This document shows, piece after piece, positions 18,696-31,222 of a stretch of 64,000 nucleotides of DNA (position 1 is its first letter; each line of letters begins with the position of its first letter). Under the pieces are notes generated by a model. It ran no database searches and was not told the origin of the DNA. It saw only the letters and a list, made by a program, of their open reading frames with translations. The stretch spans positions 32,001 through 96,000 of the forward strand of contig DASZWM010000003.1 in the NCBI GenBank assembly GCA_035546615.1, given 5' to 3'. The stretch is from Minisyncoccota bacterium (lineage in GTDB: Bacteria > Patescibacteriota > Minisyncoccia > Phycocordibacterales > SBAW01). Both the position numbers and the translations under genes were made by a program.

Positions 18696-19403
18696 CTACT
18701 CGAGCGTTATCGAGTTTATGACCATCGGCTCGACCGGACGGTCGCCCGGGCCCGTCGGCGCGCTTTCTATGGCCTTAACCACGTCCATGCCCGCGGTCAC
18801 CTTGCCGAAGGTGGTGTGCTTGTCGTCCAGGAAGTTGTTGGCCGCGGTATTGATGAAGAATTGCGAGCCGTTTGTATTAGGGCCGGCGTTGGCCATGGAG
18901 ATGGTGCCGATGTCGTTATGGTTGTTCGCGCGTATCTCATCGGCAAACTGGTAACCCGGGCCGCCGGTGCCCCAGCGCGCCGCCTGGCTGTCGTCCTTGG
19001 AAAGCGGGTCGCCGCCCTGGATCATAAAGCCCGGAATGACGCGGTGGAACTTGGTGCCGTTGTAAAAGCCCTCCCCCGCGAGCTTCGTGAAGTTGGCGAC
19101 GGTGTTGGGCGCGTCGGCGCTGAAGAACTCTATCGTAATGTCCCCCTTATTGGTGTGGAGTAGCGCGTGCATGACTGTGTGTGGATTAGCGCTGCTGGTA
19201 ACGTCTTGTGTCTGCTGTATCGCCTCGGGCGAGAGCTCCTGCGGCACTCCGCCCTGTCCGGTAGGCGGGGCGCTCGGGGCGCCTGTTGTCGAGTACGCGT
19301 CGGCCGCGGATGCGGGGGGCGCGGGCGGCCGGTTCATAAAGTACCAGCCCCCGAGGGCCATGACTAGCAGGAGCGGAAAAATGGTCAGTACCGTCTTATC
19401 CAT
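18696..19403 (-). CDS. ppiB: Peptidyl-prolyl cis-trans isomerase, cyclophilin type, membrane-anchored
   Basis: Cyclophilin motifs (FHRVIPGFMIQGGD, SMANAGPNTNGSQFFI) follow an N-terminal GGWYF anchor. Confidence 0.9.
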   Translation of the reverse strand: MDKTVLTIFPLLLVMALGGWYFMNRPPAPPASAADAYSTTGAPSAPPTGQGGVPQELSPEAIQQTQDVTSSANPHTVMHALLHTNKGDITIEFFSADAPNTVANFTKLAGEGFYNGTKFHRVIPGFMIQGGDPLSKDDSQAARWGTGGPGYQFADEIRANNHNDIGTISMANAGPNTNGSQFFINTAANNFLDDKHTTFGKVTAGMDVVKAIESAPTGPGDRPVEPMVINSITLE

Positions 19404-19656
19404 GCTTCTTCTTTCCCTTCTTTACTAACGCGAGCTTCTCCGTGCGGGAAAGCTGCTTGAGCCGGTACTCCTCGCGGGAGGCCACTGAGCGGTCGGCGAA
19501 CGGCTCGCTGTAGGACAGCCTGACCGGCCGGCGCGTGCGCGTGTATTTTGCGCCGAGGTCCGAGGAGTTGTGCTCGCTCATGCGGCGCTCAAGATCGGTC
19601 GCGATGCCGGTGTAGAGCGTGCCGTCAGCGCAGGTGACTATATACACGTGGTACAT
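19396..19656 (-). CDS. GIY-YIG nuclease superfamily protein (YhbQ/UPF0213-like)
   Basis: YHVYIVTCADGTLYTGIATDLERRMSEHN is a GIY-YIG signature. Confidence 0.85.
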   Translation of the reverse strand: MYHVYIVTCADGTLYTGIATDLERRMSEHNSSDLGAKYTRTRRPVRLSYSEPFADRSVASREEYRLKQLSRTEKLALVKKGKKKHG

Positions 19657-19661
19657 GGCGC

Positions 19662-19988
19662 CTAGGCGTGGTGGTGGTCGTGGCCGTGATTATGGTCATG
19701 CCCGTGCCCTCCGGAATTCTTGGAGAACAGGTCGCGCCAGTGGAGTTTCGCCACGAAGAAGAGGTAGATAAGCTCGAGGATGCCGAGCGTGTTGATGACG
19801 AGAAGGATGATAAACCACCAGTACTCGCCGCGCCGCGCCGAATGCCACAAGGCGAGCCCCTTGCCGATAATAGACCAGACGACGAACAAAAGCGCGAACG
19901 GCGCGAGCACCAGGAGCACGGCCGGAACCCAAAACGGCATATTGATAAACCAAGCGTTGTCCATACCCGCCCAATGATTCATATACAT
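19662..19988 (-). CDS. Membrane protein with C-terminal His-rich tail
   Basis: Two or three TM helices, ending GGHGHDHNHGHDHHHA. Confidence 0.5.
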   Translation of the reverse strand: MYMNHWAGMDNAWFINMPFWVPAVLLVLAPFALLFVVWSIIGKGLALWHSARRGEYWWFIILLVINTLGILELIYLFFVAKLHWRDLFSKNSGGHGHDHNHGHDHHHA

Positions 19989-20288: not shown

Positions 20289-20828
20289 TTACGGCTTGAT
20301 GACGAACCACACGCCTCCGTTGCCCTGGCCCGAAGCCTTTCCGGCTACGGTGTCCTTGGAGTAGAAGTACAAGGGCTTGCCATTGTACGTCACCTGGAGC
20401 GAGTTATCCGCGCGGCGGATAGTGCCTACGGTGCCGCTTACGTTGTCCGGAGCCTTGATGCTCGCGGAAGAGGAAACGGTGAACGGCGGCCACGTGTCTG
20501 CGCACGAGCCGGTGCAGTTGGAGACGCCGGTCGCGTCGCCGTCGTAGGTGTAGACGGCCATGCCGTTGTTGGCGGTCAGGAACTGGCCGAGCGTCGCGTC
20601 CGCGGTAATGGCCAGGACGTTCGTCTGGGTCGGGTTAGTGTTGCCCGCCGGAACGGTGCCGCCGGTATTCGGCTGGCCCGCTACGCCCTGATCATTGGTG
20701 CCGTTGTCGCCGGCCGTATCGGCAGCCGGAGTGCCCGGAAGCGCCATTTGTCCTGACGACCAGTACCAGTACGCTCCGCCGACCACGAGAAGCGCGGCGA
20801 CGACTGCGATAACAGTAGATGTTTTCAT
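20289..20828 (-). CDS. Exported protein, COG4315-like (YxWxxD-type secreted repeat)
   Basis: GG-YWYW anchor, then YTYDGD...CTGSCADTWPPF...TYNGKPLYFYSKD..GQG.GGVW motifs. Confidence 0.55.
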   Translation of the reverse strand: MKTSTVIAVVAALLVVGGAYWYWSSGQMALPGTPAADTAGDNGTNDQGVAGQPNTGGTVPAGNTNPTQTNVLAITADATLGQFLTANNGMAVYTYDGDATGVSNCTGSCADTWPPFTVSSSASIKAPDNVSGTVGTIRRADNSLQVTYNGKPLYFYSKDTVAGKASGQGNGGVWFVIKP

Positions 20829-20902
20829 AGAGTTAGTTATGAGTATGAAGCATTAATATTAATACTTCATTAGTATAGCAAATTAAGGCCTTTTTAGGGC
20901 GC

Positions 20903-21193
20903 CTACATCAGCTTCTTCACCTGGGACGCTATCTCGGACTCGATGCGGCCCTCGAATATCCGCCACATGAGCGGGAGCTTGGCGTCGAGCACGTAATCGG
21001 CATCGGTCACTTCCAGCTTGCCTGATATAGGTTTTCCCTGGAGCTCGACCCCGAAATGGAGCGTGTTCCCCTCCCACCGTTCTTCGGTTATTTTTGCCTG
21101 GCCGGCGATCTTCGAGCGGCCCTGCTCGATTCCGTCCTTCACCTTTTCTACAGCTTTGGACTGCGTCGTCTTGTGCGGAATGACTATATGCAT
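20903..21193 (-). CDS. Polyhydroxyalkanoate-system-like small protein (TIGR02610-like)
   Basis: 96 aa. The pattern resembles the PHA granule region family from memory. Low certainty. Confidence 0.35.
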   Translation of the reverse strand: MHIVIPHKTTQSKAVEKVKDGIEQGRSKIAGQAKITEERWEGNTLHFGVELQGKPISGKLEVTDADYVLDAKLPLMWRIFEGRIESEIASQVKKLM

Positions 21194-21242
21194 AGGCTCC
21201 TATTATACATATCCGGTACTTTCGAAACTAGAAGCCTGGCTC

Positions 21243-21524
21243 TTATTTTAGCTTTTTGCAAAAAGCTAAAATACTTTCGGCGCGGGGCGTGAGGGTATGG
21301 CGTACGTTCATCCCGTCGCTGCGCTTGTAGAGGAGCCCGGCGATAGCCATCTTGCGCAGATGGTCGGAAGCGTTCATATATCCCATCCCCAGCTTTTCCG
21401 CTATCCCCTCGATCGAGAGGCCCGGGGTCTGCTTGAGCAGATCCAATACCTGAAGGCGCCTATAGCTGGCAAAGCCTTTCACTATCCGCTCAAGCCGGCG
21501 ATATTCGCCCTGGTCTTTCGGCAT
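21243..21524 (-). CDS. ArsR/SmtB family transcriptional regulator
   Basis: HTH RLQVLDLLKQTPGLSIEGIAEKLGMGYMNASDHLRKM. The track start at 21560 is TTG; an ATG lies at 21524. Confidence 0.8.
   Translation of the reverse strand: MPKDQGEYRRLERIVKGFASYRRLQVLDLLKQTPGLSIEGIAEKLGMGYMNASDHLRKMAIAGLLYKRSDGMNVRHTLTPRAESILAFCKKLK
21246..21271. repeat. 26-bp perfect palindrome TTTTAGCTTTTTGCAAAAAGCTAAAA (copy 1 of 3) overlapping arsR stop
   Basis: Seen directly. Related copies lie at about 21551-21565 and 21609-21634. Confidence 0.8.
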
Positions 21525-21550
21525 GGCGAAGACTATATACGGTGTTTTAC

Positions 21551-21565
21551 GTTTTTGCAAAAAGC
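21551..21565. promoter_or_regulatory. Palindrome copy 2 (GTTTTTGCAAAAAGC) about 30 nt upstream of arsR ATG; candidate operator
   Basis: Seen directly. Confidence 0.5.
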
Positions 21566-21608
21566 TTTGATAAAAGGGCGGGGCGGGCGGGAACGAAAGG
21601 CTTTATCA

Positions 21609-21634
21609 CGGCTTTTTGCAAAAAGCTAAAATAA
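21609..21634. repeat. Palindrome copy 3 (GGCTTTTTGCAAAAAGCTAAAATA)
   Basis: Seen directly. Confidence 0.7.
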
Positions 21635-21647
21635 AAGAAATACATAA

Positions 21648-21671
21648 GGGAGGGAGGGAGGGAGGGAGGGA
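21648..21671 (+). repeat. (GGGA)x6 microsatellite / G-quadruplex-forming motif
   Basis: Seen directly. G3-N1 repeated six times. Confidence 0.9.
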
Positions 21672-21694
21672 GCCTTTACCTTTTTGCTTTTATT

Positions 21695-22105
21695 TTATCT
21701 GATGCGGATCCGGCGGAGGGCTTTGCGGGCTTTTTTGTAGTCCGGAATGGTCTCTTCGACCAGGGCCCAGAAGGCGGGGCTGTGGTTCATTTCCTTCAGG
21801 TGGCACAGCTCGTGGGTTACGACATATTCGGCCAGGCGCGGCGGCAAGAAAAGGAGGCGGTAGTTGAAGTTGAGGTTGCCGTGCTCCGAGCAGCTCCCCC
21901 ACCGCGAACGGCTGTTCTTTATGAATACCCGGCGCACGGCGTAGTCGTAGTGCGCGTTGAGGCGCGCGATGAGCGCATGGACAAGCGCGCGAGCCTCTTC
22001 CTTATACAGCTGGAACTTCCGCGAACTAGCCGCCGAAGCCGGGCGTCGTCTCCGTACCCGCCGCCGATATACGATTTTGTATCCAAACACCGAGGTATTG
22101 TACAA
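21695..22105 (-). CDS. YgjP-like metal-dependent hydrolase (DUF45/M48-like, HExxH)
   Basis: WGSCSEHGNLNFNYRLLFLPPRLAEYVVTHELCHLKEMNHSPAFW. TTG start, Arg-rich N-terminus. This is the last GC-rich gene before the island. Confidence 0.6.
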   Translation of the reverse strand: MYNTSVFGYKIVYRRRVRRRRPASAASSRKFQLYKEEARALVHALIARLNAHYDYAVRRVFIKNSRSRWGSCSEHGNLNFNYRLLFLPPRLAEYVVTHELCHLKEMNHSPAFWALVEETIPDYKKARKALRRIRIR

Positions 22106-22141
22106 CCTTACTTAATGGCAGGCTCAGATATAGATTTATAA

Positions 22142-22540
22142 CTACAAAATTGAGATAACTTTCTTAACGACGGAGTCTGAAGCACTCTTGAGTCGATGTT
22201 CCCATATTCTTAATACCTTCCAATTCATACTTTTTAATTGTTTATTAACCAATCTATCTCTTTTCTTATTTCTTTCTATTTTGTTAGTCCAATATGCGCG
22301 ATTTGTCTTTGGAACTCTACAGTGAGTCTTACATCCGTGCCAAAAACAAGAGTCAATGAAAATTGCTGTCTTAGAAACAGAAAAAACAATATCAGGTCTG
22401 CCTGGCAATTTTGCCACATGAGTTGTAAACTTTAGTTTACTTTTTTTCAGTTGCTTCTGAAAAGATTTTTCTATACCTGAATTTCTACTCTTAATGAGAC
22501 GCATTATTTCGCTGCGTCTTCCAGAAGATACATTGTCCAT
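22142..22540 (-). CDS. vsr: Very short patch repair endonuclease Vsr
   Basis: FIDSCFWHGC...P.TN..YW..KI..N..RD motifs. Confidence 0.9.
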   Translation of the reverse strand: MDNVSSGRRSEIMRLIKSRNSGIEKSFQKQLKKSKLKFTTHVAKLPGRPDIVFSVSKTAIFIDSCFWHGCKTHCRVPKTNRAYWTNKIERNKKRDRLVNKQLKSMNWKVLRIWEHRLKSASDSVVKKVISIL

Positions 22541-22544
22541 GCCT

Positions 22545-23612
22545 TTATTCTTCTATATCCCAACCTGTTGGAAGTGTGATTTTGGTATAGGCTCTTTCTT
22601 TGATAAAAGGGACAATCTCTGCGCTCGAAGGAAACTCTGCGTCAAATTCTCTCGTTAAATCACTTAACAAAGTGCCAGCAAGTCGTTCTCTATATTCTTT
22701 ACTGAGGCAAAGAGTATACCAGTCATGCAAATCTTTAAGAGTAATTATTCCTTGCACACGCTCAATAATCCCGAGCTGTTGTAGCAGGGCCTCAATAGGT
22801 TTCTTTTCTGCGTCTCGACAAACAATTACAATCCTGTCCGCTTCGATTCCCTCGACAATTCCTTCGGTTACTTCAGGAGTAAGTGTAAGGTGTTTTACCT
22901 GGATAGCTGTTCCAAAATTTGCCCACATATCTAATCCCCTATCCGCCGCATTCGTTACGCCAACTCTAAAAAGGGCTGCGGGCATAGCTACTTGAGTCTT
23001 TCTGGCATCTATGCCTAAAACCATTTTTATAAAACCTTCAAAATCAGTAAGTATTTCTTTGTCTTCATTTTTAATCGAAAGGGTGATTTCCGCTTTTAAT
23101 GCTCGTACAATAGCGGAAAAAAGAGCATGCACTGCTATTTCATATATTTTATCTGTGCTTCGTCTCAAGCCAGGACTTGATGTAAAAAGTTCCACTAATT
23201 CCATTATGGAAAAAGTGTCCACTGTTGACTGTTCGATATAGTCTCTTACCCGATGAACAGATAGTAACTTATTTTGTAAAGCTTTATAAATATAAGCCTC
23301 TACTCCGCCCTTACTTGTTGTATTTATTTTTCCTAACACTGCCAATAGTTGGGGCGGCATAGCATTAGGCTCAAAGATATTATCTTGGTACTTTGCGCTA
23401 GAAGTACTGCTCCTCCCAACAAGTAAGGTGGAGACTTCATCTCTCCAACGTTTAGAGACAGAGCGATAACTTTCTAGATCAGTTAGTTCTAGCTTTTTCT
23501 TAGTTCTATGATAGAAAAGTATCTCCGCTATCTGTATAGGTTTATAGAAGTGCACTCTGGCCTTCTTTATAACTGAATCCAGAGCCGCTTTTGCTTCTTC
23601 AGCCATTGACAT
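22545..23612 (-). CDS. Putative type II restriction endonuclease (family unassigned)
   Basis: The 355-aa ORF lies between the C5-MTase and vsr and overlaps the MTase stop by 14 nt. No family was identified by eye. Confidence 0.5.
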   Translation of the reverse strand: MSMAEEAKAALDSVIKKARVHFYKPIQIAEILFYHRTKKKLELTDLESYRSVSKRWRDEVSTLLVGRSSTSSAKYQDNIFEPNAMPPQLLAVLGKINTTSKGGVEAYIYKALQNKLLSVHRVRDYIEQSTVDTFSIMELVELFTSSPGLRRSTDKIYEIAVHALFSAIVRALKAEITLSIKNEDKEILTDFEGFIKMVLGIDARKTQVAMPAALFRVGVTNAADRGLDMWANFGTAIQVKHLTLTPEVTEGIVEGIEADRIVIVCRDAEKKPIEALLQQLGIIERVQGIITLKDLHDWYTLCLSKEYRERLAGTLLSDLTREFDAEFPSSAEIVPFIKERAYTKITLPTGWDIEE

Positions 23613-24621
23613 ACGCCCGTTCTACCATATTTATGTCTTTTCCGCTAAACAATTCAGTTTGTTCAATAAAAGGAACCGGGTCTTTCGACATTGCTTCAAC
23701 CATTGCGTGGGCCACTGCTTCCATCTGAGGAACCACTACAGCATTACCAGCTTGCTTCCGGATTTGCTGGTCAGCAACAACAAATTTATATGAATCGGGA
23801 AAACCCTGTAATCTAAACATCTCTCTAGGAGTCAGTCTTCTTTCTCCATTTACAATAAGATAGTTATATGAACCATTAGCCCTAAGAGCGCATGAATAAG
23901 CATTCACGCCTAGGTTTCCAGACTTATTTTCGTGCAAGATTAACGGACGAGAATGAAGTTCTTTGTGTTGTTCTTTTAATTGTCTCTGGACTTTCTGCAA
24001 CATATAATCGCTAAGAAAGTGTTTTTTATCGACCTCATTATCAGGCTCAAGGATGTCTTCAAGAGTTTTCTTTTTTCCCCTCCCTTTGGTAGGAAATTCA
24101 AAAGGGTAGTTTTCTCTAAAACCTACAATCATTATTCGCTCTCTCTTTTGCGGAACGCCAAAATCTAGACCATTTAAAACTTTAAAGTGCACAAAATAAC
24201 CTAGTTTTCTTAAACTATTTAGAATTACTGAAAACGTCCTTCCTTGATCATGATTGGTAAGTTGTTTTACATTTTCCAAAAATAGAGCTTTTGGTTTCTT
24301 TGCCTTTAGAATTCTCTCAACATCAAAAAACAACGTGCCTCTTGTTTCAGAGAAACCTTTCATATTCCCCATGATGCTAAAAGCTTGGCATGGAAAACCG
24401 CCTGTCAAAATATCATGGTCAGGCACATCTTTTGCAACTATTTTCGTTATATCTCCATCTGGCTGGTCGCCGAAATGATTCTTATACATCTTCTGCGCAG
24501 CTTCATCCCATTCTGATGTAAAAACACATTTACCTCCTGCCGCTTCAAAACCAAGTCTAATGCCTCCAATTCCTGCAAAGAGATCGATAAAAGTAAATTT
24601 ATTCTTATTCGTTGGAGCCAT
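23599..24621 (-). CDS. dcm: DNA (cytosine-5)-methyltransferase
   Basis: Motif I FIDLFAGIGG, motif IV GGFPCQAFS, motif VI ENV, motif VIII QRRERI-like. Confidence 0.95.
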   Translation of the reverse strand: MAPTNKNKFTFIDLFAGIGGIRLGFEAAGGKCVFTSEWDEAAQKMYKNHFGDQPDGDITKIVAKDVPDHDILTGGFPCQAFSIMGNMKGFSETRGTLFFDVERILKAKKPKALFLENVKQLTNHDQGRTFSVILNSLRKLGYFVHFKVLNGLDFGVPQKRERIMIVGFRENYPFEFPTKGRGKKKTLEDILEPDNEVDKKHFLSDYMLQKVQRQLKEQHKELHSRPLILHENKSGNLGVNAYSCALRANGSYNYLIVNGERRLTPREMFRLQGFPDSYKFVVADQQIRKQAGNAVVVPQMEAVAHAMVEAMSKDPVPFIEQTELFSGKDINMVERAYVNG

Positions 24622-24851
24622 AGAGCAATATATTTTAACACCTATTTTAAGCTTGCTATATTTTTAATAATAGCACTGAAATCTATATTTATACACAATA
24701 TACACAAGTCTTGGGGATAACTTTAGTGAGGGCCGTTTTTGGTCCAGGATAGCCGTATCCGCCAGCCGATAAAAATAGAGTAAGGGGGTAAAGATCAGCA
24801 ATCGTGGGATGAGCGTGTCTAATAGTCACCTAAGGATTTATAGCCATAAGG

Positions 24852-25193
24852 CTATTGTGGCAAACCCTTAATTTTGTTTCTGAAGAAATTAAATCGCATC
24901 TTAGCATAGTCCCAAAGAAAAGAGCAGAACGACTTATTTGGATGTCTTTTTATTTCACGCAAGTTCTCGAAAGCATAATTAAGTATATCTATAAATAATA
25001 ACCCTGGTACAACACCCAATGCGAATATATACCAATCAGAAAAACGTGTTTTTAACAAACTGTAAGTCGCATTTACTGCAATTCCAAGAACTACCGCAAG
25101 CGTCGCACCGAGTATCACAAATGCCCACTGTATTTGTAGACTTCTTTCCTCTTGTAAATCACCCTTGTTCATGGCGAATATATCTAATAACAA
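24852..25193 (-). CDS. Small two-TM membrane protein (candidate effector of the Ubl/E1 module)
   Basis: Two hydrophobic helices (WAFVILGATLAVVLGIAV; WYIFALGVVPGLLFIDIL). TTG at 25193 or ATG at 25172. It lies 8 nt after the upstream stop. Confidence 0.5.
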   Translation of the reverse strand: MLLDIFAMNKGDLQEERSLQIQWAFVILGATLAVVLGIAVNATYSLLKTRFSDWYIFALGVVPGLLFIDILNYAFENLREIKRHPNKSFCSFLWDYAKMRFNFFRNKIKGLPQ

Positions 25194-25201
25194 GTAAAAA
25201 A

Positions 25202-25612
25202 TTATTCGAAGAAGCTACGCAATTGGACTAATATCCAGTTTCCAAATCGTCGCCACCATGACAGGGAGGAATGAATAAAGTATGCATCCTTGATGGTATC
25301 GTCATATTCTCGCCCGTGGCGTATCTGTTCTCGAGTCATCTTCGACGCCCAAATCACTTGATTTTCAATAATCCAATAATGTGACTGACAAGGATGATTC
25401 CAGTTTCCTATTGAAGGACGTAGCGAGACCACCCCCTGCCAATCAACTAGCGTATATTCGGTCTTACGGAGAGGGGTAACGATTTTAGTGCCACAACTGC
25501 AACAGCACAAATGGCTCGCGGTTCCGAAACGTCGTGAGATATATAGAACACCACTCTCAAGCTCTCTTGGTATGAACTCAACATATTCAGGACGCACCAA
25601 CTCTGTCTTCAT
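25202..25612 (-). CDS. Cys-rich Zn-ribbon-like protein (DUF6527-like, recalled)
   Basis: HLCCCSCGTK...NHPCQSH cluster. The ATG at 25612 overlaps the E1-like gene stop (ATGA-type coupling). Confidence 0.5.
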   Translation of the reverse strand: MKTELVRPEYVEFIPRELESGVLYISRRFGTASHLCCCSCGTKIVTPLRKTEYTLVDWQGVVSLRPSIGNWNHPCQSHYWIIENQVIWASKMTREQIRHGREYDDTIKDAYFIHSSLSWWRRFGNWILVQLRSFFE

Positions 25613-26808
25613 ATACAATCCTCTTTTGTAAGGGCGTGGGTCGCAATCGTGTACAGCGAATGACGTTCTCGCACATCATCAGCATAAAAACCACACAATT
25701 GCTTCCATTTTCCCACAGCCATGGCAGCATTTAGCATATTTAGGTCCGCAACCTGCATATTACGGTACACCGCCTCGGCCGGCACTTTTGCAAATGAAAC
25801 AACTTCCGCAATATGTCCATGATGGTCGGGTGTTCCAACTGTAAAGCGACACTGTCCGCGCAGAGACGCCTGATTATCGAGTGCCAAGTCTATTCCAACG
25901 TCTATGAACGGCACACCAAGAGCAATAAGGCCATTAAGTATGTTCTTCCGGCTCTCTCCGTCGTCGATAGCAACAAACACGAAGTCGAACCCGGACAGCT
26001 CGTGGAGATGCGCGTCCTGGACATAGTAGGGATGACGCTTCAAGCCCTTGTGTATACGTTCGTATATACCACTGAACCAATCCACTTTTAGTGGATTGTT
26101 AAGCTCCTGCTTCATCGGAGCACCCGGTGCTCTAAACGCGTTGTGGAGTTCGAACGTATCCCCATCGAAAATGTGGATTTCTTTCACCGGCGTCTTAGCA
26201 ACAAGGTCGAGAATATACGAACCAGTACCACCTAGTCCTATAATCGCCACCCGACTTGCAAGGAGTTTCGCCGTGGCCGCTCCAATACCAGCACGGGTTG
26301 TTGCCATATCAGGATAATGGAATGCGAGTTCCTGAGCTTCGACTACCGCCGGTACTGGTTTTTCACTTCGTGGATCGCAAGTCCGATCAATTGCTTGAGC
26401 TTCGTGCCAAATCAGACGAACATATGTCCAGATTTTTTCGTAGTAGTCGGCATACTTGCGCTTATCAGCGTGCACACGCGAGAAGGCGACAGTCGTCTTA
26501 ATCCCATCGCCCTTATCCTCCTCAGCGTTGTTCGAAATCATCTCCGTCATTAGTTGACCATCCGCGTTGTGCGGGGGTTCTCCAATCCACCAACACTGAT
26601 GGTTGGAACATGGATTCACTGTCTTTCCGGCCGCATCAATTTCAAGTGGGCAATAGAGAATTCCAGGCACTATTTTGCCTTCAGAGGTAACAGCAGGAAT
26701 TCCCTCAATTAAAAGATGAGAGGCAGTCCCTTGAATGACCCGGAGACGAAAACCTTCCGCCTCCAACTTTGCCAAATCGGCATTATGACTTATCCGTATT
26801 TCTGACAT
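25609..26808 (-). CDS. E1-like ThiF/MoeB-fold enzyme with ~165-aa N-terminal domain of unknown fold
   Basis: VAIIGLGGTGSYILDLVAKTPVKEIHIFDGDTFELHNAFR is a ThiF nucleotide-binding motif. The N-terminal domain has conserved-looking C/H residues (YCPLE, NPCSNHQCWW, PPHN). Confidence 0.8.
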   Translation of the reverse strand: MSEIRISHNADLAKLEAEGFRLRVIQGTASHLLIEGIPAVTSEGKIVPGILYCPLEIDAAGKTVNPCSNHQCWWIGEPPHNADGQLMTEMISNNAEEDKGDGIKTTVAFSRVHADKRKYADYYEKIWTYVRLIWHEAQAIDRTCDPRSEKPVPAVVEAQELAFHYPDMATTRAGIGAATAKLLASRVAIIGLGGTGSYILDLVAKTPVKEIHIFDGDTFELHNAFRAPGAPMKQELNNPLKVDWFSGIYERIHKGLKRHPYYVQDAHLHELSGFDFVFVAIDDGESRKNILNGLIALGVPFIDVGIDLALDNQASLRGQCRFTVGTPDHHGHIAEVVSFAKVPAEAVYRNMQVADLNMLNAAMAVGKWKQLCGFYADDVRERHSLYTIATHALTKEDCI

Positions 26809-27040
26809 CGAAGTTCATATGATCGACCACATCTACACTTTGGCCCCGGCGAAGCGATCCTTCGTGTCCACCTGGCTTAGTCCATGAAACGCTGTAGCGA
26901 ACATCGCCTCCGAACGGACCAGTTGGGAATGCGAGCTTGATGACTTGCTCGTAGCTAATATCGTGTTCACCCCACTTCTCTTGAATACCGTTCACAACAA
27001 TGCTTATGGTGTGTCCATGCCCTTTATTATCGTCTGCCAT
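26783..27040 (-). CDS. Multiubiquitin-like beta-grasp protein (85 aa, no C-terminal GG)
   Basis: ISIVVNG...ISYEQVIKLAFP...RYSVSW...GQSVDVVDHMNFDVR matches, from memory, the multiubiquitin domain pattern of prokaryotic E1/E2 operons. It overlaps the E1-like gene start by 26 nt. Confidence 0.5.
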   Translation of the reverse strand: MADDNKGHGHTISIVVNGIQEKWGEHDISYEQVIKLAFPTGPFGGDVRYSVSWTKPGGHEGSLRRGQSVDVVDHMNFDVRNTDKS

Positions 27041-27224
27041 ATAATTTTAATTGTCGGCTTTTTAATTTAAGTGCGGCACCGGTCGACCGCACTTGTATCG
27101 TACACCCATTTCTGATACCCTTGCAAGGTAACTAGATGTATCAAATGTTACCTAAAGTACCATATTTGTTATATCTGATACCTGTTGTTACAACCTATAA
27201 CAAGTTACGCACAGATTTCAAATC

Positions 27225-27584
27225 ATGAGAAAATCATCCGCTACAATAAACAATGAAAGCAGATCCACAGAGCTTGAAATCCGGAAAGAGATTGGCAGAC
27301 GTATCGCTGAAATGCGTAGCAAACTGGGGCTTACAGCTCGCCTTGTTGCCAAAGAACTTCATGTCTCACGCGAAGCCATTACTCACATTGAAACAGGGCG
27401 AAACAATATATCTGCCGTATCGCTGTGGGAATTGGCGACTCTCTTCCATTGTGATATTGCTGATTTTTTCCCTGATATTCCTAATGGATATTCTTTAACT
27501 AGGGTCGATATTAATAAAGTAGCACAAATGAGTGGAAAGACAGGGGCGGCATGGGCTGAAAAGATTTTTGGGAAAAAGAAATAA
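27225..27584 (+). CDS. XRE-family HTH transcriptional regulator (CapH/ImmR-like)
   Basis: HTH_3 signature IGRRIAEMRSKLGLTARLVAKELHVSREAITHIETGRNNIS. Confidence 0.85.
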   Translation: MRKSSATINNESRSTELEIRKEIGRRIAEMRSKLGLTARLVAKELHVSREAITHIETGRNNISAVSLWELATLFHCDIADFFPDIPNGYSLTRVDINKVAQMSGKTGAAWAEKIFGKKK

Positions 27585-27588
27585 ATAT

Positions 27589-28083
27589 ATGATGTCAGAA
27601 AGAATTGAGAAAAAAGCGGAGGAAGTCTTAAGCGCACTGAATGTTAAGTCAATACCTATCTCTGTTGAAGAAATCGCGAATCAATTAAAGATCAAGATAG
27701 GAAGAGCACCTAGTAGTGAATTTTCTGGAATGTTGATTCGAAAAGATGGTCGAGCACTTATGGGTATAAATAACAGTGAAGGCACTGCGAGACAACGATT
27801 CACTATTGCGCATGAACTTGGGCATTATTTCTTACATCCACAAAATGATACTTTTGTAGACTATAGGCAGAACGAAAAAGAACCAAGAAATCATAGAGAA
27901 CGAGAGGCTGATATGTTTGCAGCAGCACTCTTAATGCCTAGGAAAGAAGTAACAAAAGACTTTCAGAAAATTGTTAGGAAAGGATTTTCAGAAATTGAAC
28001 TTCACAAACTGGCAGGAAAATATGAAGTGAGCGACAAAGCAATGAGATTTAGGTTAGTAAACTTAAATATGCTATTAGGTTAA
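27589..28083 (+). CDS. ImmA/IrrE family Zn-metallopeptidase (CapP/ImmA-like)
   Basis: HELGHYFLH HExxH motif in the COG2856 fold context. It lies immediately downstream of the XRE gene. Confidence 0.85.
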   Translation: MMSERIEKKAEEVLSALNVKSIPISVEEIANQLKIKIGRAPSSEFSGMLIRKDGRALMGINNSEGTARQRFTIAHELGHYFLHPQNDTFVDYRQNEKEPRNHREREADMFAAALLMPRKEVTKDFQKIVRKGFSEIELHKLAGKYEVSDKAMRFRLVNLNMLLG

Positions 28084-28087
28084 GATT

Positions 28088-28348
28088 TTATTGTCTACTC
28101 CCTTGTGATCCTAATCTATCCGTAAAAGGTCCCTCACGATGGGCCGCCGGATCTACATCCTTTTTTGTAATAACCTGGGGAAAGCGGGTATTTTCTTCAA
28201 TCTGCTCTAGTAACGTGACTATTCTGTTCAATTTCCAGTACCAGGTAAGGATTTCCCTGATCAGGAGGAATATCAGAGCGCCCACGCATAGGACAAAAAC
28301 GATATTTGGTAGCTGGGACCAGTAATATTGAAATAAGGGTTGAAGCAT
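28088..28348 (-). CDS. Small membrane protein (one TM helix), downstream partner of AbrB-like gene
   Basis: IVFVLCVGALIFLLI helix. Coordinates are from the track. Confidence 0.4.
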   Translation of the reverse strand: MLQPLFQYYWSQLPNIVFVLCVGALIFLLIREILTWYWKLNRIVTLLEQIEENTRFPQVITKKDVDPAAHREGPFTDRLGSQGSRQ

Positions 28349-28351
28349 ATA

Positions 28352-28540
28352 TTACTTCTTCCAGTCGCGGATTATCAGCTTCTTTCTCTTCAGATCCACC
28401 TCTACGGTGAGCTTTTGGCGCTCTTTCCACTTGAACTTGCGGATAGCCTCCACCGGAAGCGCGACCGTATAGGTACTTCCCCGCCCCGTCTTGGTGAGCT
28501 TGCGGACCTGCTTTTTCTGCCCCGCCTTCGGCCGTGCCAT
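28352..28540 (-). CDS. AbrB/MazE/SpoVT-like small DNA-binding protein (candidate antitoxin)
   Basis: VRKLTKTGRGSTYTVALPVEAIRKFKWKERQKLTVEV resembles the looped-hinge helix fold. Confidence 0.45.
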   Translation of the reverse strand: MARPKAGQKKQVRKLTKTGRGSTYTVALPVEAIRKFKWKERQKLTVEVDLKRKKLIIRDWKK

Positions 28541-30925: not shown

Positions 30926-31222
30926 TGCACCGTGCCGACGAGCGACTGCGCGAAATGGAGCACGAGCTCAAGCATCGAAATGAGGAAATTTATGAACAGC
31001 GTGAGCAGGCTGAGCAGGAAGCCCAGGATGAGATCAAGGATATGCGTTATGAAATCCATGGAACCAGTATACACCGCTCTTTTCCCTATATCAGGAATGA
31101 GTTTTGCAAAAATCGATGAGATGCAAGGCGCGGGCGAGGCTCGGACCGAGCAATAGGCCGCCTATTGTGAGGGAGACCCGCAGCCCGCAACGCGGCAGGT
31201 CGCGATTTTTGCGAAACGCAAG

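Follow-up and report, generated by a model that had tools for sequence, protein, structure and literature searches.

A palindrome recurs at the predicted promoter and within the last codons of a winged-helix regulator gene in Parcubacteria

The ArsR/SmtB autorepressors, which include SmtB, CzrA and CadC as well as the non-metal members HlyU, BigR and NolR, are small dimeric winged-helix proteins of ~90-120 aa with an S-x-H-L-x-x-L-x-x-A-G-L recognition helix and an inverted-repeat operator over their own promoter. Operators can also lie inside coding sequence: lac O2 in lacZ and gal OI in galE are auxiliary sites of this kind that work through DNA looping, and in Bacillus subtilis a parS site is located within spo0J/parB. 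The replication terminator protein (RTP) of B. subtilis is a small, autoregulated winged-helix dimer with few sites per genome, the ~30-bp Ter sites, each of which takes two dimers. Repetitive extragenic palindromes (REPs) are short and intergenic, often following stop codons or lying in convergent gaps, and the gene of the associated transposase (RAYT) is flanked by copies. For bacteria of the candidate phyla radiation (CPR), whose genomes are tiny and hold very few regulators and for which there is no genetics, transcription control is to our knowledge almost wholly uncharted. Here we analyse a stretch of 64,000 nt from a Minisyncoccota bacterium (contig DASZWM010000003.1, positions 32,001 to 96,000; "the window"), in which three copies of a palindrome flank the gene for a 93-aa ArsR-like winged-helix regulator (21243-21524, minus strand; ATG 21522-21524, TAA 21243-21245), an open reading frame (ORF) with Pfam and NCBIfam matches. 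The locus recalls each of these systems in part, but by comparison of features the defining properties of lac/gal, parS and REP/RAYT do not appear to fit it. In the searchable literature we found no description of a regulator gene with a palindrome both at its promoter and in its own last codons, nor anything relevant on the palindrome core or on regulators and palindromes of Patescibacteria, Parcubacteria or the CPR.

The motif AGCTTTTTGCAAAAAGCT is present at 21250-21267 (no mismatches), 21549-21566 (two mismatches) and 21610-21627 (one mismatch), and there is no fourth match with up to three mismatches in the 64 kb. The chance expectation is 0.04 matches, and three matches were reached in 0 of 100 shuffles. 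All three copies are centred on TTTTTGCAAAAA and flank the regulator gene, as the original prediction, made from the letters of the window, had it. Scored with a 34-bp position weight matrix from 286 family sites, the window has only three positive hits: 34.9 bits at 21242-21275, 26.6 bits at 21602-21635 and 5.2 bits at 21541-21574. The next-best score is -16 bits, and the maxima of simulated windows range from -8 to -24. The best match (copy 1), taken earlier for a 26-bp palindrome, is in fact a perfect palindrome of 30 bp, TATTTTAGCTTTTTGCAAAAAGCTAAAATA (21244-21273). It spans the last 9-10 codons of the gene (..SILAFCKKLK) and two bases of the TAA stop, and encodes the C-terminal helix (..ESILAFCKKLK) of the protein. 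The promoter-proximal copy 2 (21541-21574) has an intact core TTTTTGCAAAAA (21552-21563) and degenerate arms; it had rightly been called imperfect, with its centre 34 nt before the ATG rather than the ~30 nt given at the time. Such a half-degenerate proximal copy is likewise found in three relatives (L007, L015, L023). In the distal upstream copy 3 (21602-21635) the gene-distal arm matches copy 1. Further upstream, at 21675-21687, lies a half-copy remnant with one arm and half a core, TTTACCTTTTTGC, which the earlier inventory of three copies had missed. A candidate fourth site at 31101-31112, with one mismatch in the core, no arms and a score of -18.6 bits, was discarded as a chance match. 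The 12-2-12 inverted repeat suggested at the outset does not describe these sites, which are ~30-34 bp long.

To place the locus in its family, we used a genome set of 80 loci retrieved via the protein, which hold 81 homologous genes, and a metagenome set of at least 120 loci from a scan of metagenome contigs for CTAGNNTTTTGCAAAANNCTAG. Locus labels (L followed by three digits) denote contig slices from relatives, not whole genomes. Genes at the relatives' loci were called with our own heuristic hexamer-trained caller, which recovered 79 of the 81 regulator genes, the exception being L201 with its curated calls; orientation statistics are therefore approximate. Close homologues with 58-77% identity occur in Kaiser-, Adler-, Nomura-, Taylor-, Vogel-, Niyogi-, Lipton-, Moran- and Magasanikbacteria, and the window protein is 100% identical to one in a metagenome-assembled genome (MAG) of Candidatus Paceibacterota. 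The exact core TTTTGCAAAA lies upstream of the gene in 80 of 80 genome loci, and the family consensus is a 34-bp palindrome, TCTATTCTAGTnTTTTGCAAAAnACTAGAATAGA.

Upstream of the gene, this palindrome adjoins a predicted -10 box that precedes the ATG by 5-9 nt. The centre of copy 2 in the window, TTGCAA (21555-21560), resembles a -35 element and is followed after 17 nt by the -10-like hexamer TATAGT (21532-21537, minus strand), which ends 7 nt before the ATG. The order TTGCAA, 17 nt, TATAGT, 7 nt, ATG implies that the regulator mRNA in the window would be leaderless, with the palindrome sitting on the putative -35 element. L001, at 77% identity the nearest relative, shows the elements in the window's order, namely distal palindrome, C-run tract, proximal palindrome, GTATATAGT and ATG, and GTATATAGT is common to both -10 regions. 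Promoter geometry was measured on 116 homologous genes; in 96 of them the ATG follows a -10-like hexamer at 5-9 nt, and the modal distance from palindrome centre to ATG is 30-31 nt. Measured from the palindrome centre, such hexamers have a peak of 38% at +18, confined to the gene side; elsewhere (the far side, 3' copies and other sites) the figure is ~4%. The spacer from TTGCAA to the -10 box is 15 nt at its mode, 10 or 28 nt in others, and 17 nt in the window. As judged from these motifs, the palindrome abuts or overlaps the predicted promoter of a typically leaderless gene, and the proposal that the upstream copies are operators is borne out to this extent. In several tight gene pairs (L115, L124, L183, and upstream of the gene in L209) the gap consists of a stop, 34 bp, 3-8 nt and an ATG. 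There, the TAGAAT of the palindrome arm, 6-7 nt before the ATG, could itself serve as a leaderless -10 box.

The copy at the 3' end is as regular as the one upstream. A palindrome covers the last ten codons and the stop in 78 of the 81 genes of the genome set, copies flank the gene on both sides in 79 of 81 loci, and the two are spaced by ~290-300 bp. In a codon alignment of the 81 genes, the synonymous sites beneath the 3' copy are frozen. F88 is TTT in 81 of 81 genes, compared with 38 TTT and 34 TTC at F18; C89 is TGC in 80/81; K90 is AAA in 80/81, compared with 32 AAA and 49 AAG at K67; L86 is CTA in 75/81, a codon used 0-7 times at other leucine columns; and S84 is TCT in 51/54. Third-position entropy drops from ~1-2 bits to 0-0.3 bits over these codons, and the palindrome furnishes the stop codon too, through its outer arm. 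Because the synonymous sites are frozen, the DNA of the 3' copy is under selection beyond the needs of the protein, in line with the earlier suspicion that this copy has a function. The same DNA thus encodes the terminal helix of the protein and, as a second message, holds the palindrome. The C-terminal I-L-x-F-C-K-x-L is invariant among the homologues aligned, and the single invariant cysteine, Cys89, is imposed by the palindrome core.

The two copies of a locus also vary together. Arm agreement between the upstream and the 3' copy of one locus is 9.42 of 12 positions, compared with 7.85 (standard deviation 0.13) in shuffled pairs. The arms fall into the classes CTAGTR, CTAACR and CCAGTR, and paralogues of one genome each have a distinct class, at both copies (L017, L033, L040 and L072 of one MAG; L045; L111). 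Among residues of the recognition helix we saw no clear determinant of the arm classes. Across species, sequence-specific conservation covers the 10 core bases and spaced arm positions, with position 6 free, a pattern that fits contacts made by a protein. An exhaustive profile search found more distant relatives of ~90 aa that end in F-L-R-x-L-E. Within these, a sister clade ending in KFLRTLE (L203, L209, L210, L211) shares this layout but has another core, AATTCTTAAGAATT. Its upstream site is ATTCTnAAATTCTTAAGAATTTnAGAAT, which three of the four loci have as a perfect palindrome of 28 bp. A matching copy covers the codons for ..KFLRTLE and the stop, with AT-rich rare codons even in a GC-rich gene. 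The arms ATTCTA and TAGAAT are common to both clades, and the core has changed in both copies. Three further loci (L205, L206, L208) have the upstream palindrome only, and in the distant relative L204 no palindrome was seen. From this distribution we conclude that the promoter palindrome is ancestral, and that its embedding in C-terminal codons occurs in at least two clades. The dual-coding design is seen in the ~120 close homologues examined and is repeated with a different core in the sister clade.

What kind of protein is encoded between the copies? The original prediction placed it in the arsR family. It is a winged-helix protein with weak matches to HTH_5 (25.0 bits, cut-off 22) and to MarR (26.3, cut-off 24.6), and its NCBIfam HTH_metalloreg score of 41.5 is below the ArsR/SmtB cut-off of 55. 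A family profile compared with the PDB matches HlyU (2e-9), CadC, CzrA and SmtB, with values ranging from 2e-9 to 1e-4, and an ArsR-type recognition helix (S-D-H-x-R-K-x-A-x-A-G-L) is present. By contrast with the metal sensors of the family, inspection of a 25-sequence alignment revealed neither an alpha3N CxC nor an alpha5 DxHx10Hx2E metal site and no cysteine in the alpha3 region, and no metal or arsenic resistance genes are among the neighbours at the 81 loci. Membership of the metal-sensor family fails on these ligands, on gene context and on the NCBIfam score. By its sequence, the protein is best placed in the ArsR/SmtB fold group as a divergent member of the non-metal type, and the binding assays with and without metals envisaged for it are poorly motivated. 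A putative operator at the protein's own promoter is usual for that group; the predicted length of 30-34 bp, compared with 12-2-12, and the second predicted operator in its own C-terminal codons further set it apart.

We consider it likely that the palindromes are the winged-helix protein's own operators, which would provide autorepression together with an auxiliary operator inside the gene. The protein, probably as two dimers on each 30-34-bp site, would bind the promoter copy and silence its own leaderless transcription. The coding-end copy would act as an auxiliary operator ~300 bp away, and might either loop the whole gene for stronger repression or block read-through into the next gene. 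In the window, where the distal upstream and 3' copies are strong and the promoter-proximal one is weak, cooperative or looped occupancy could be useful. As in lac and gal, a promoter operator would be combined with a second one downstream in coding DNA, here at ~290-300 bp as far as motif positions indicate. Differently from those systems, the intragenic site is in the regulator's own gene, encodes its terminal helix and stop, and is conserved in at least two clades, in which its synonymous sites are frozen. A loop, and an oligomer to form it, would have to be assumed. The regulator is conserved class-wide, its 34-bp site is clearly defined, its promoter is predicted to be leaderless, and its paralogues have site classes of their own, which makes it a ready test case for work in vitro or in a heterologous host. 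It is also a case of overlapping codes, in which ten codons are bound both by a terminal helix and by a DNA site presumably read by the same protein, and in which peptide (FCK vs. FLR), 3' site and promoter site have changed in concert between two clades.

Palindromes are also found away from the gene in relatives; the counts given for these rest on the matches listed in the metagenome scan (148 exact sites). Among these matches, 98 of 148 sites are not beside a regulator gene, and 80 of the at least 120 metagenome loci are without one. About 80% of the gene-independent sites are intergenic, compared with 14% of the DNA, and extra sites in related loci occur very roughly once per 20-30 kb. Since CTAGNNTTTTGCAAAANNCTAG has zero matches in 2.9 million viral contigs, the metagenome matches are not due to chance, and a phage origin of the palindrome was rejected on the same result. 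The dispersed-repeat outcome that had been named as fatal to the operator proposal is thus partly seen in relatives, in that most listed sites lie off the gene, but copy number is low and there are none elsewhere in the window. Low copy number, arm classes that match paralogous regulators and the absence of further copies in the window make the palindromes look like a wider set of putative binding sites rather than a REP-type repeat, and the same protein probably binds the scattered gene-boundary palindromes of related genomes too. Neighbours of the dispersed sites include ECF-like sigma factors (ECF, extracytoplasmic function), TspO, an HD-domain protein, DsbA-like, a GDSL lipase, DUF1653, DUF1905 and NifU; in L201, where gene calls are curated, a site starts 4 nt after a DUF1905 stop.

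Several of these observations weigh against a simple autorepressor, and so do some at the regulator gene itself. The gene-independent sites lack a -10 peak and favour no particular distance to a start, and the idea that they are promoters of the same design was dropped for this reason, with few cases of TAGAAT, 7 nt, ATG. Of the 45 listed matches in co-directional gaps, 30 are closer to the stop that lies upstream (p = 0.036), and 15 begin 0-15 nt past it. Convergent gaps hold 20 sites and divergent gaps 7, compared with 85 and 76 in the background (three-class chi-square, p = 0.014). In-frame palindromes are found within housekeeping genes (L152, centre 2601; L183, 8483; L175, 701; L081, L108, L184, L168), where they are read in the sole frame that is open both ways (..SS[VI]LQNTRI..). 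The palindrome segment makes PyrC 8 residues longer than E. coli PyrC, in PurE and PurN the palindrome replaces colinear sequence with no indel, and in TruB it is at a similar position in at least four contigs. A simple repressor regulon does not predict such sites, and they fit neither a plain operator nor a plain insertion model. At the promoter, the palindrome centre serves as a -35 element strictly in some loci only, the window included. An AlphaFold model of the protein (mean predicted local distance difference test score, pLDDT, 72) has an unmodelled wing and a low-confidence C-terminus and was not used, and Foldseek against the PDB returned generic winged-helix matches only, all with E>0.1 (none at E<=0.001). 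Finally, the link between protein and site is one of association and co-variation.

As the palindromes lie at gene boundaries, prefer positions after stops and between convergent genes, and are overprinted on PurE, PurN, PyrC and TruB, the protein might be a genome-wide boundary factor, either a roadblock or insulator that replaces missing intrinsic terminators or part of a chromosome-organising site system, with the C-/G-run tracts described below as part of the mechanism. We regard this as a tentative and rather doubtful extension; if the copies at stop codons and in housekeeping genes do function, they would reveal how CPR organisms mark gene boundaries. A conserved few-copy palindrome with one copy inside the gene of its presumed binding protein and others in housekeeping genes is reminiscent of ParB-parS, and the archaeal centromere-binding protein AspA, also a winged helix of ~93 aa, is a weak profile match (4e-4). 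Unlike ParB, the regulator has no ParB domain, and there is no conserved ParA or ParB neighbour among the 81 loci. In RTP-Ter the sites are asymmetric and polar, whereas the sites here are perfect palindromes, with nothing that ties them to a replication terminus.

Two rival explanations can be set against the operator reading. The palindrome could be an RNA or single-strand DNA hairpin at transcript ends, acting as a terminator, 3'-end stabiliser or processing signal independently of the protein. The stems are perfect, with a folding energy of -11.7 kcal/mol (z -2.4) for copy 1 RNA and of -27.8 kcal/mol (z -4.9) for the stretch with copies 2 and 3, and a 3'-end hairpin would account for the way in which the listed gene-independent palindromes hug stops and are enriched in convergent gaps. 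The terminator that had been suggested for the 3' copy is nevertheless not of the canonical type: the stem is AU-rich, AAGAGCC follows in place of a U-tract, a terminator scan was negative at every copy, and the flanks are T-rich on the 5' side and A-rich on the 3' side, the reverse of a bidirectional terminator. Rfam has no match at the locus at E<=1, tRNAs being its only matches in the whole window. Pairing alone also needs no 10-base core and spaced arm bases that are invariant across species-level genomes. G.U-compatible mismatches are not in excess on the sense strand (80 vs. 82; 116 vs. 107; 13 vs. 19), half of the mismatches are transversions, and they cluster at position 6 and the outer two positions. 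The upstream copy precedes the -10 box and would be outside the regulator's own mRNA, and in the KFLRTLE clade the core has been swapped in step with the regulator family. A hairpin with no part for the protein is, on balance, quite unlikely. The palindrome might instead be a REP- or MITE-like selfish repeat (MITE, miniature inverted-repeat transposable element) and the winged-helix gene its element-encoded protein, as RAYT is for REPs. This would explain why the gene is bracketed by copies, why no neighbour is conserved (the best recurs in 10 of 81 loci), why most of the listed sites lie away from the gene in intergenic DNA, why small genes lie between clustered identical copies (L025, L045, L111), and why copies in PyrC and TruB are read through in frame. 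It is hard to reconcile with the low copy number (three in 64 kb, all at the gene), with the absence from the viral contigs, and with the colinear PurE and PurN copies, which insertion leaves unexplained. Searches of Pfam, NCBIfam and PDB profiles place the regulator in winged-helix families only, with no transposase, nuclease or recombinase domain, and it appears to be a DNA binder with no HUH (IS200/IS605-like) transposase or other catalytic domain as in RAYTs. More than 100 genes share one fixed register to promoter and reading frame, which points to ancient vertical co-evolution rather than repeated insertion, and conservation is at the level of the class where REPs are genus-specific. The GTAG/CGTC end tags carried by REP superfamilies (PMC3733652) are absent here. 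We judge a selfish repeat to be very unlikely.

A third possibility concerns the G-run tracts that accompany the palindromes. The (GGGA)6 tetranucleotide repeat (21648-21671, plus strand, i.e. the template strand) is the top tandem repeat of the window. It starts ~13-20 nt beyond copy 3, not immediately after it as first described, and is enclosed by an inverted repeat (21624-21640/21684-21700) built of the flank of copy 3 and the half-copy remnant. A second motif of G-quadruplex (G4) type, GGGCGGGGCGGGCGGG (21576-21591, plus strand; the template strand, with a C-run tract on the sense strand), had gone unnoticed. It lies between copies 2 and 3 and forms the loop of their inverted repeat (arms 21545-21574 and 21602-21631, including a TGATAAA extension). 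At least four runs of at least three Gs with loops of 1-7 nt are present at 21576-21591 and 21648-21670, in both cases with 1-nt loops, so the G4 motif noted at (GGGA)6 is real as a sequence; it is on the template strand, and in RNA transcribed from the upstream gene it would read (UCCC)6. These tracts might form template-strand G-quadruplexes that modulate the promoter or operators. Three canonical G4 motifs occur in the 64 kb, and the two at the locus are the short-loop ones, where 0.08 are expected; each is the loop of an inverted repeat made of palindrome copies. L001 has a different, equally C-run-rich tract at the same place between its two upstream palindromes, and L201 has C-run tracts beside two palindromes, including one before the upstream palindrome. 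Over all site classes, flanks read outward from the palindrome have at least three G-runs in 36 of 475 cases and at least three C-runs in 2 of 475 (p = 3e-9). Against this, only ~8% of sites have three or more runs, which makes the tract dispensable; its sequence is not conserved, with (GGGA)6 absent from L001; and a perfect tetranucleotide repeat may be mere slippage. As the transcribed tract is C-rich, it could alternatively be a Rho-loading-type 3' untranslated region of the upstream gene, and the G-runs could be purine-rich ribosome-binding regions of outward genes. A regulatory role for quadruplexes is possible but, in our view, doubtful; by their sequence, the two motifs of the window are a pronounced case of an accessory that recurs at palindrome sites.

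The genes that neighbour the regulator are all on the minus strand. Upstream, a co-directional gene for a YgjP-like metallopeptidase (21695-22105, minus strand) has its stop 24 nt before (UCCC)6 and is a neighbour in 9 of 81 loci; we take it as context and not as a part of the unit. Downstream, a PHA_gran_rgn gene (20903-21193, minus strand), which is not a conserved neighbour, has its own TATAAT (21202-21207) 8 nt before its ATG, and the centre of copy 1 is 65 nt upstream of that ATG. Across loci the neighbours include YgjP-like, PHA_gran_rgn, TspO, DUF1905 and sigma factors, with no conserved partner gene or operon in the 81 loci; the PHA_gran_rgn and YgjP-like genes were dropped as candidate targets of the regulator. 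Between the TATAAT and ATG of the PHA_gran_rgn gene is AGGAGCC. This second leaderless-looking layout suggests that leaderless transcripts are common in the organism. A further near-perfect palindrome, ATGAAGCATTAATATTAATACTTCAT, at 20845-20870 between the PHA_gran_rgn gene and a Lipoprotein_15 (SCO0930-like) gene (20289-20828), may be the operator of another regulator. Further downstream, at 19662-19988 and 19396-19656, the genes encode a membrane protein (DUF5652) whose tail is His-rich, HGHDHNHGHDHHH, and a nuclease of the GIY-YIG type. Both families, and a cyclophilin-like ORF as well, are near the regulator in 6-7 of 81 loci, which amounts to residual synteny only.

About 400 bp upstream of the locus a low-GC island begins (22100-28500; 36-50% GC compared with ~60%). 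Its genes include a Vsr mismatch endonuclease (22142-22540) and a HaeII-type restriction enzyme (22545-23612), and the ORF beside the latter (23599-24621) is cytosine-5 methyltransferase-like by its motifs; the island is probably a horizontally acquired restriction-modification cassette. Truncation of the YgjP-like gene by this island was considered and rejected, as short forms of ~128 aa are usual in relatives.

In the relatives, ECF-like sigma-70 genes are found next to palindromes in L045 (1053-1864), L067 (6854-7571) and L111 (5251-5859 and 8274-8909), and those of L045 and L067 have palindromes on both sides. L045 and L111 have in common the order ComM-like gene, regulator, sigma factor and TrmB-like gene (the last by its N-terminal sequence), a set that may be a small regulatory module. 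Identical 34-bp palindromes are clustered at spacings of 0.3-1.2 kb in L025 (631, 1802, 2165, 2501) and L111 (494-7525). Each pair encloses one or two small genes in a cassette-like arrangement, with no recombinase seen. In the KFLRTLE clade, the regulator of L211 (1-847) is divergent from a parB gene, a single case that may be a coincidence.

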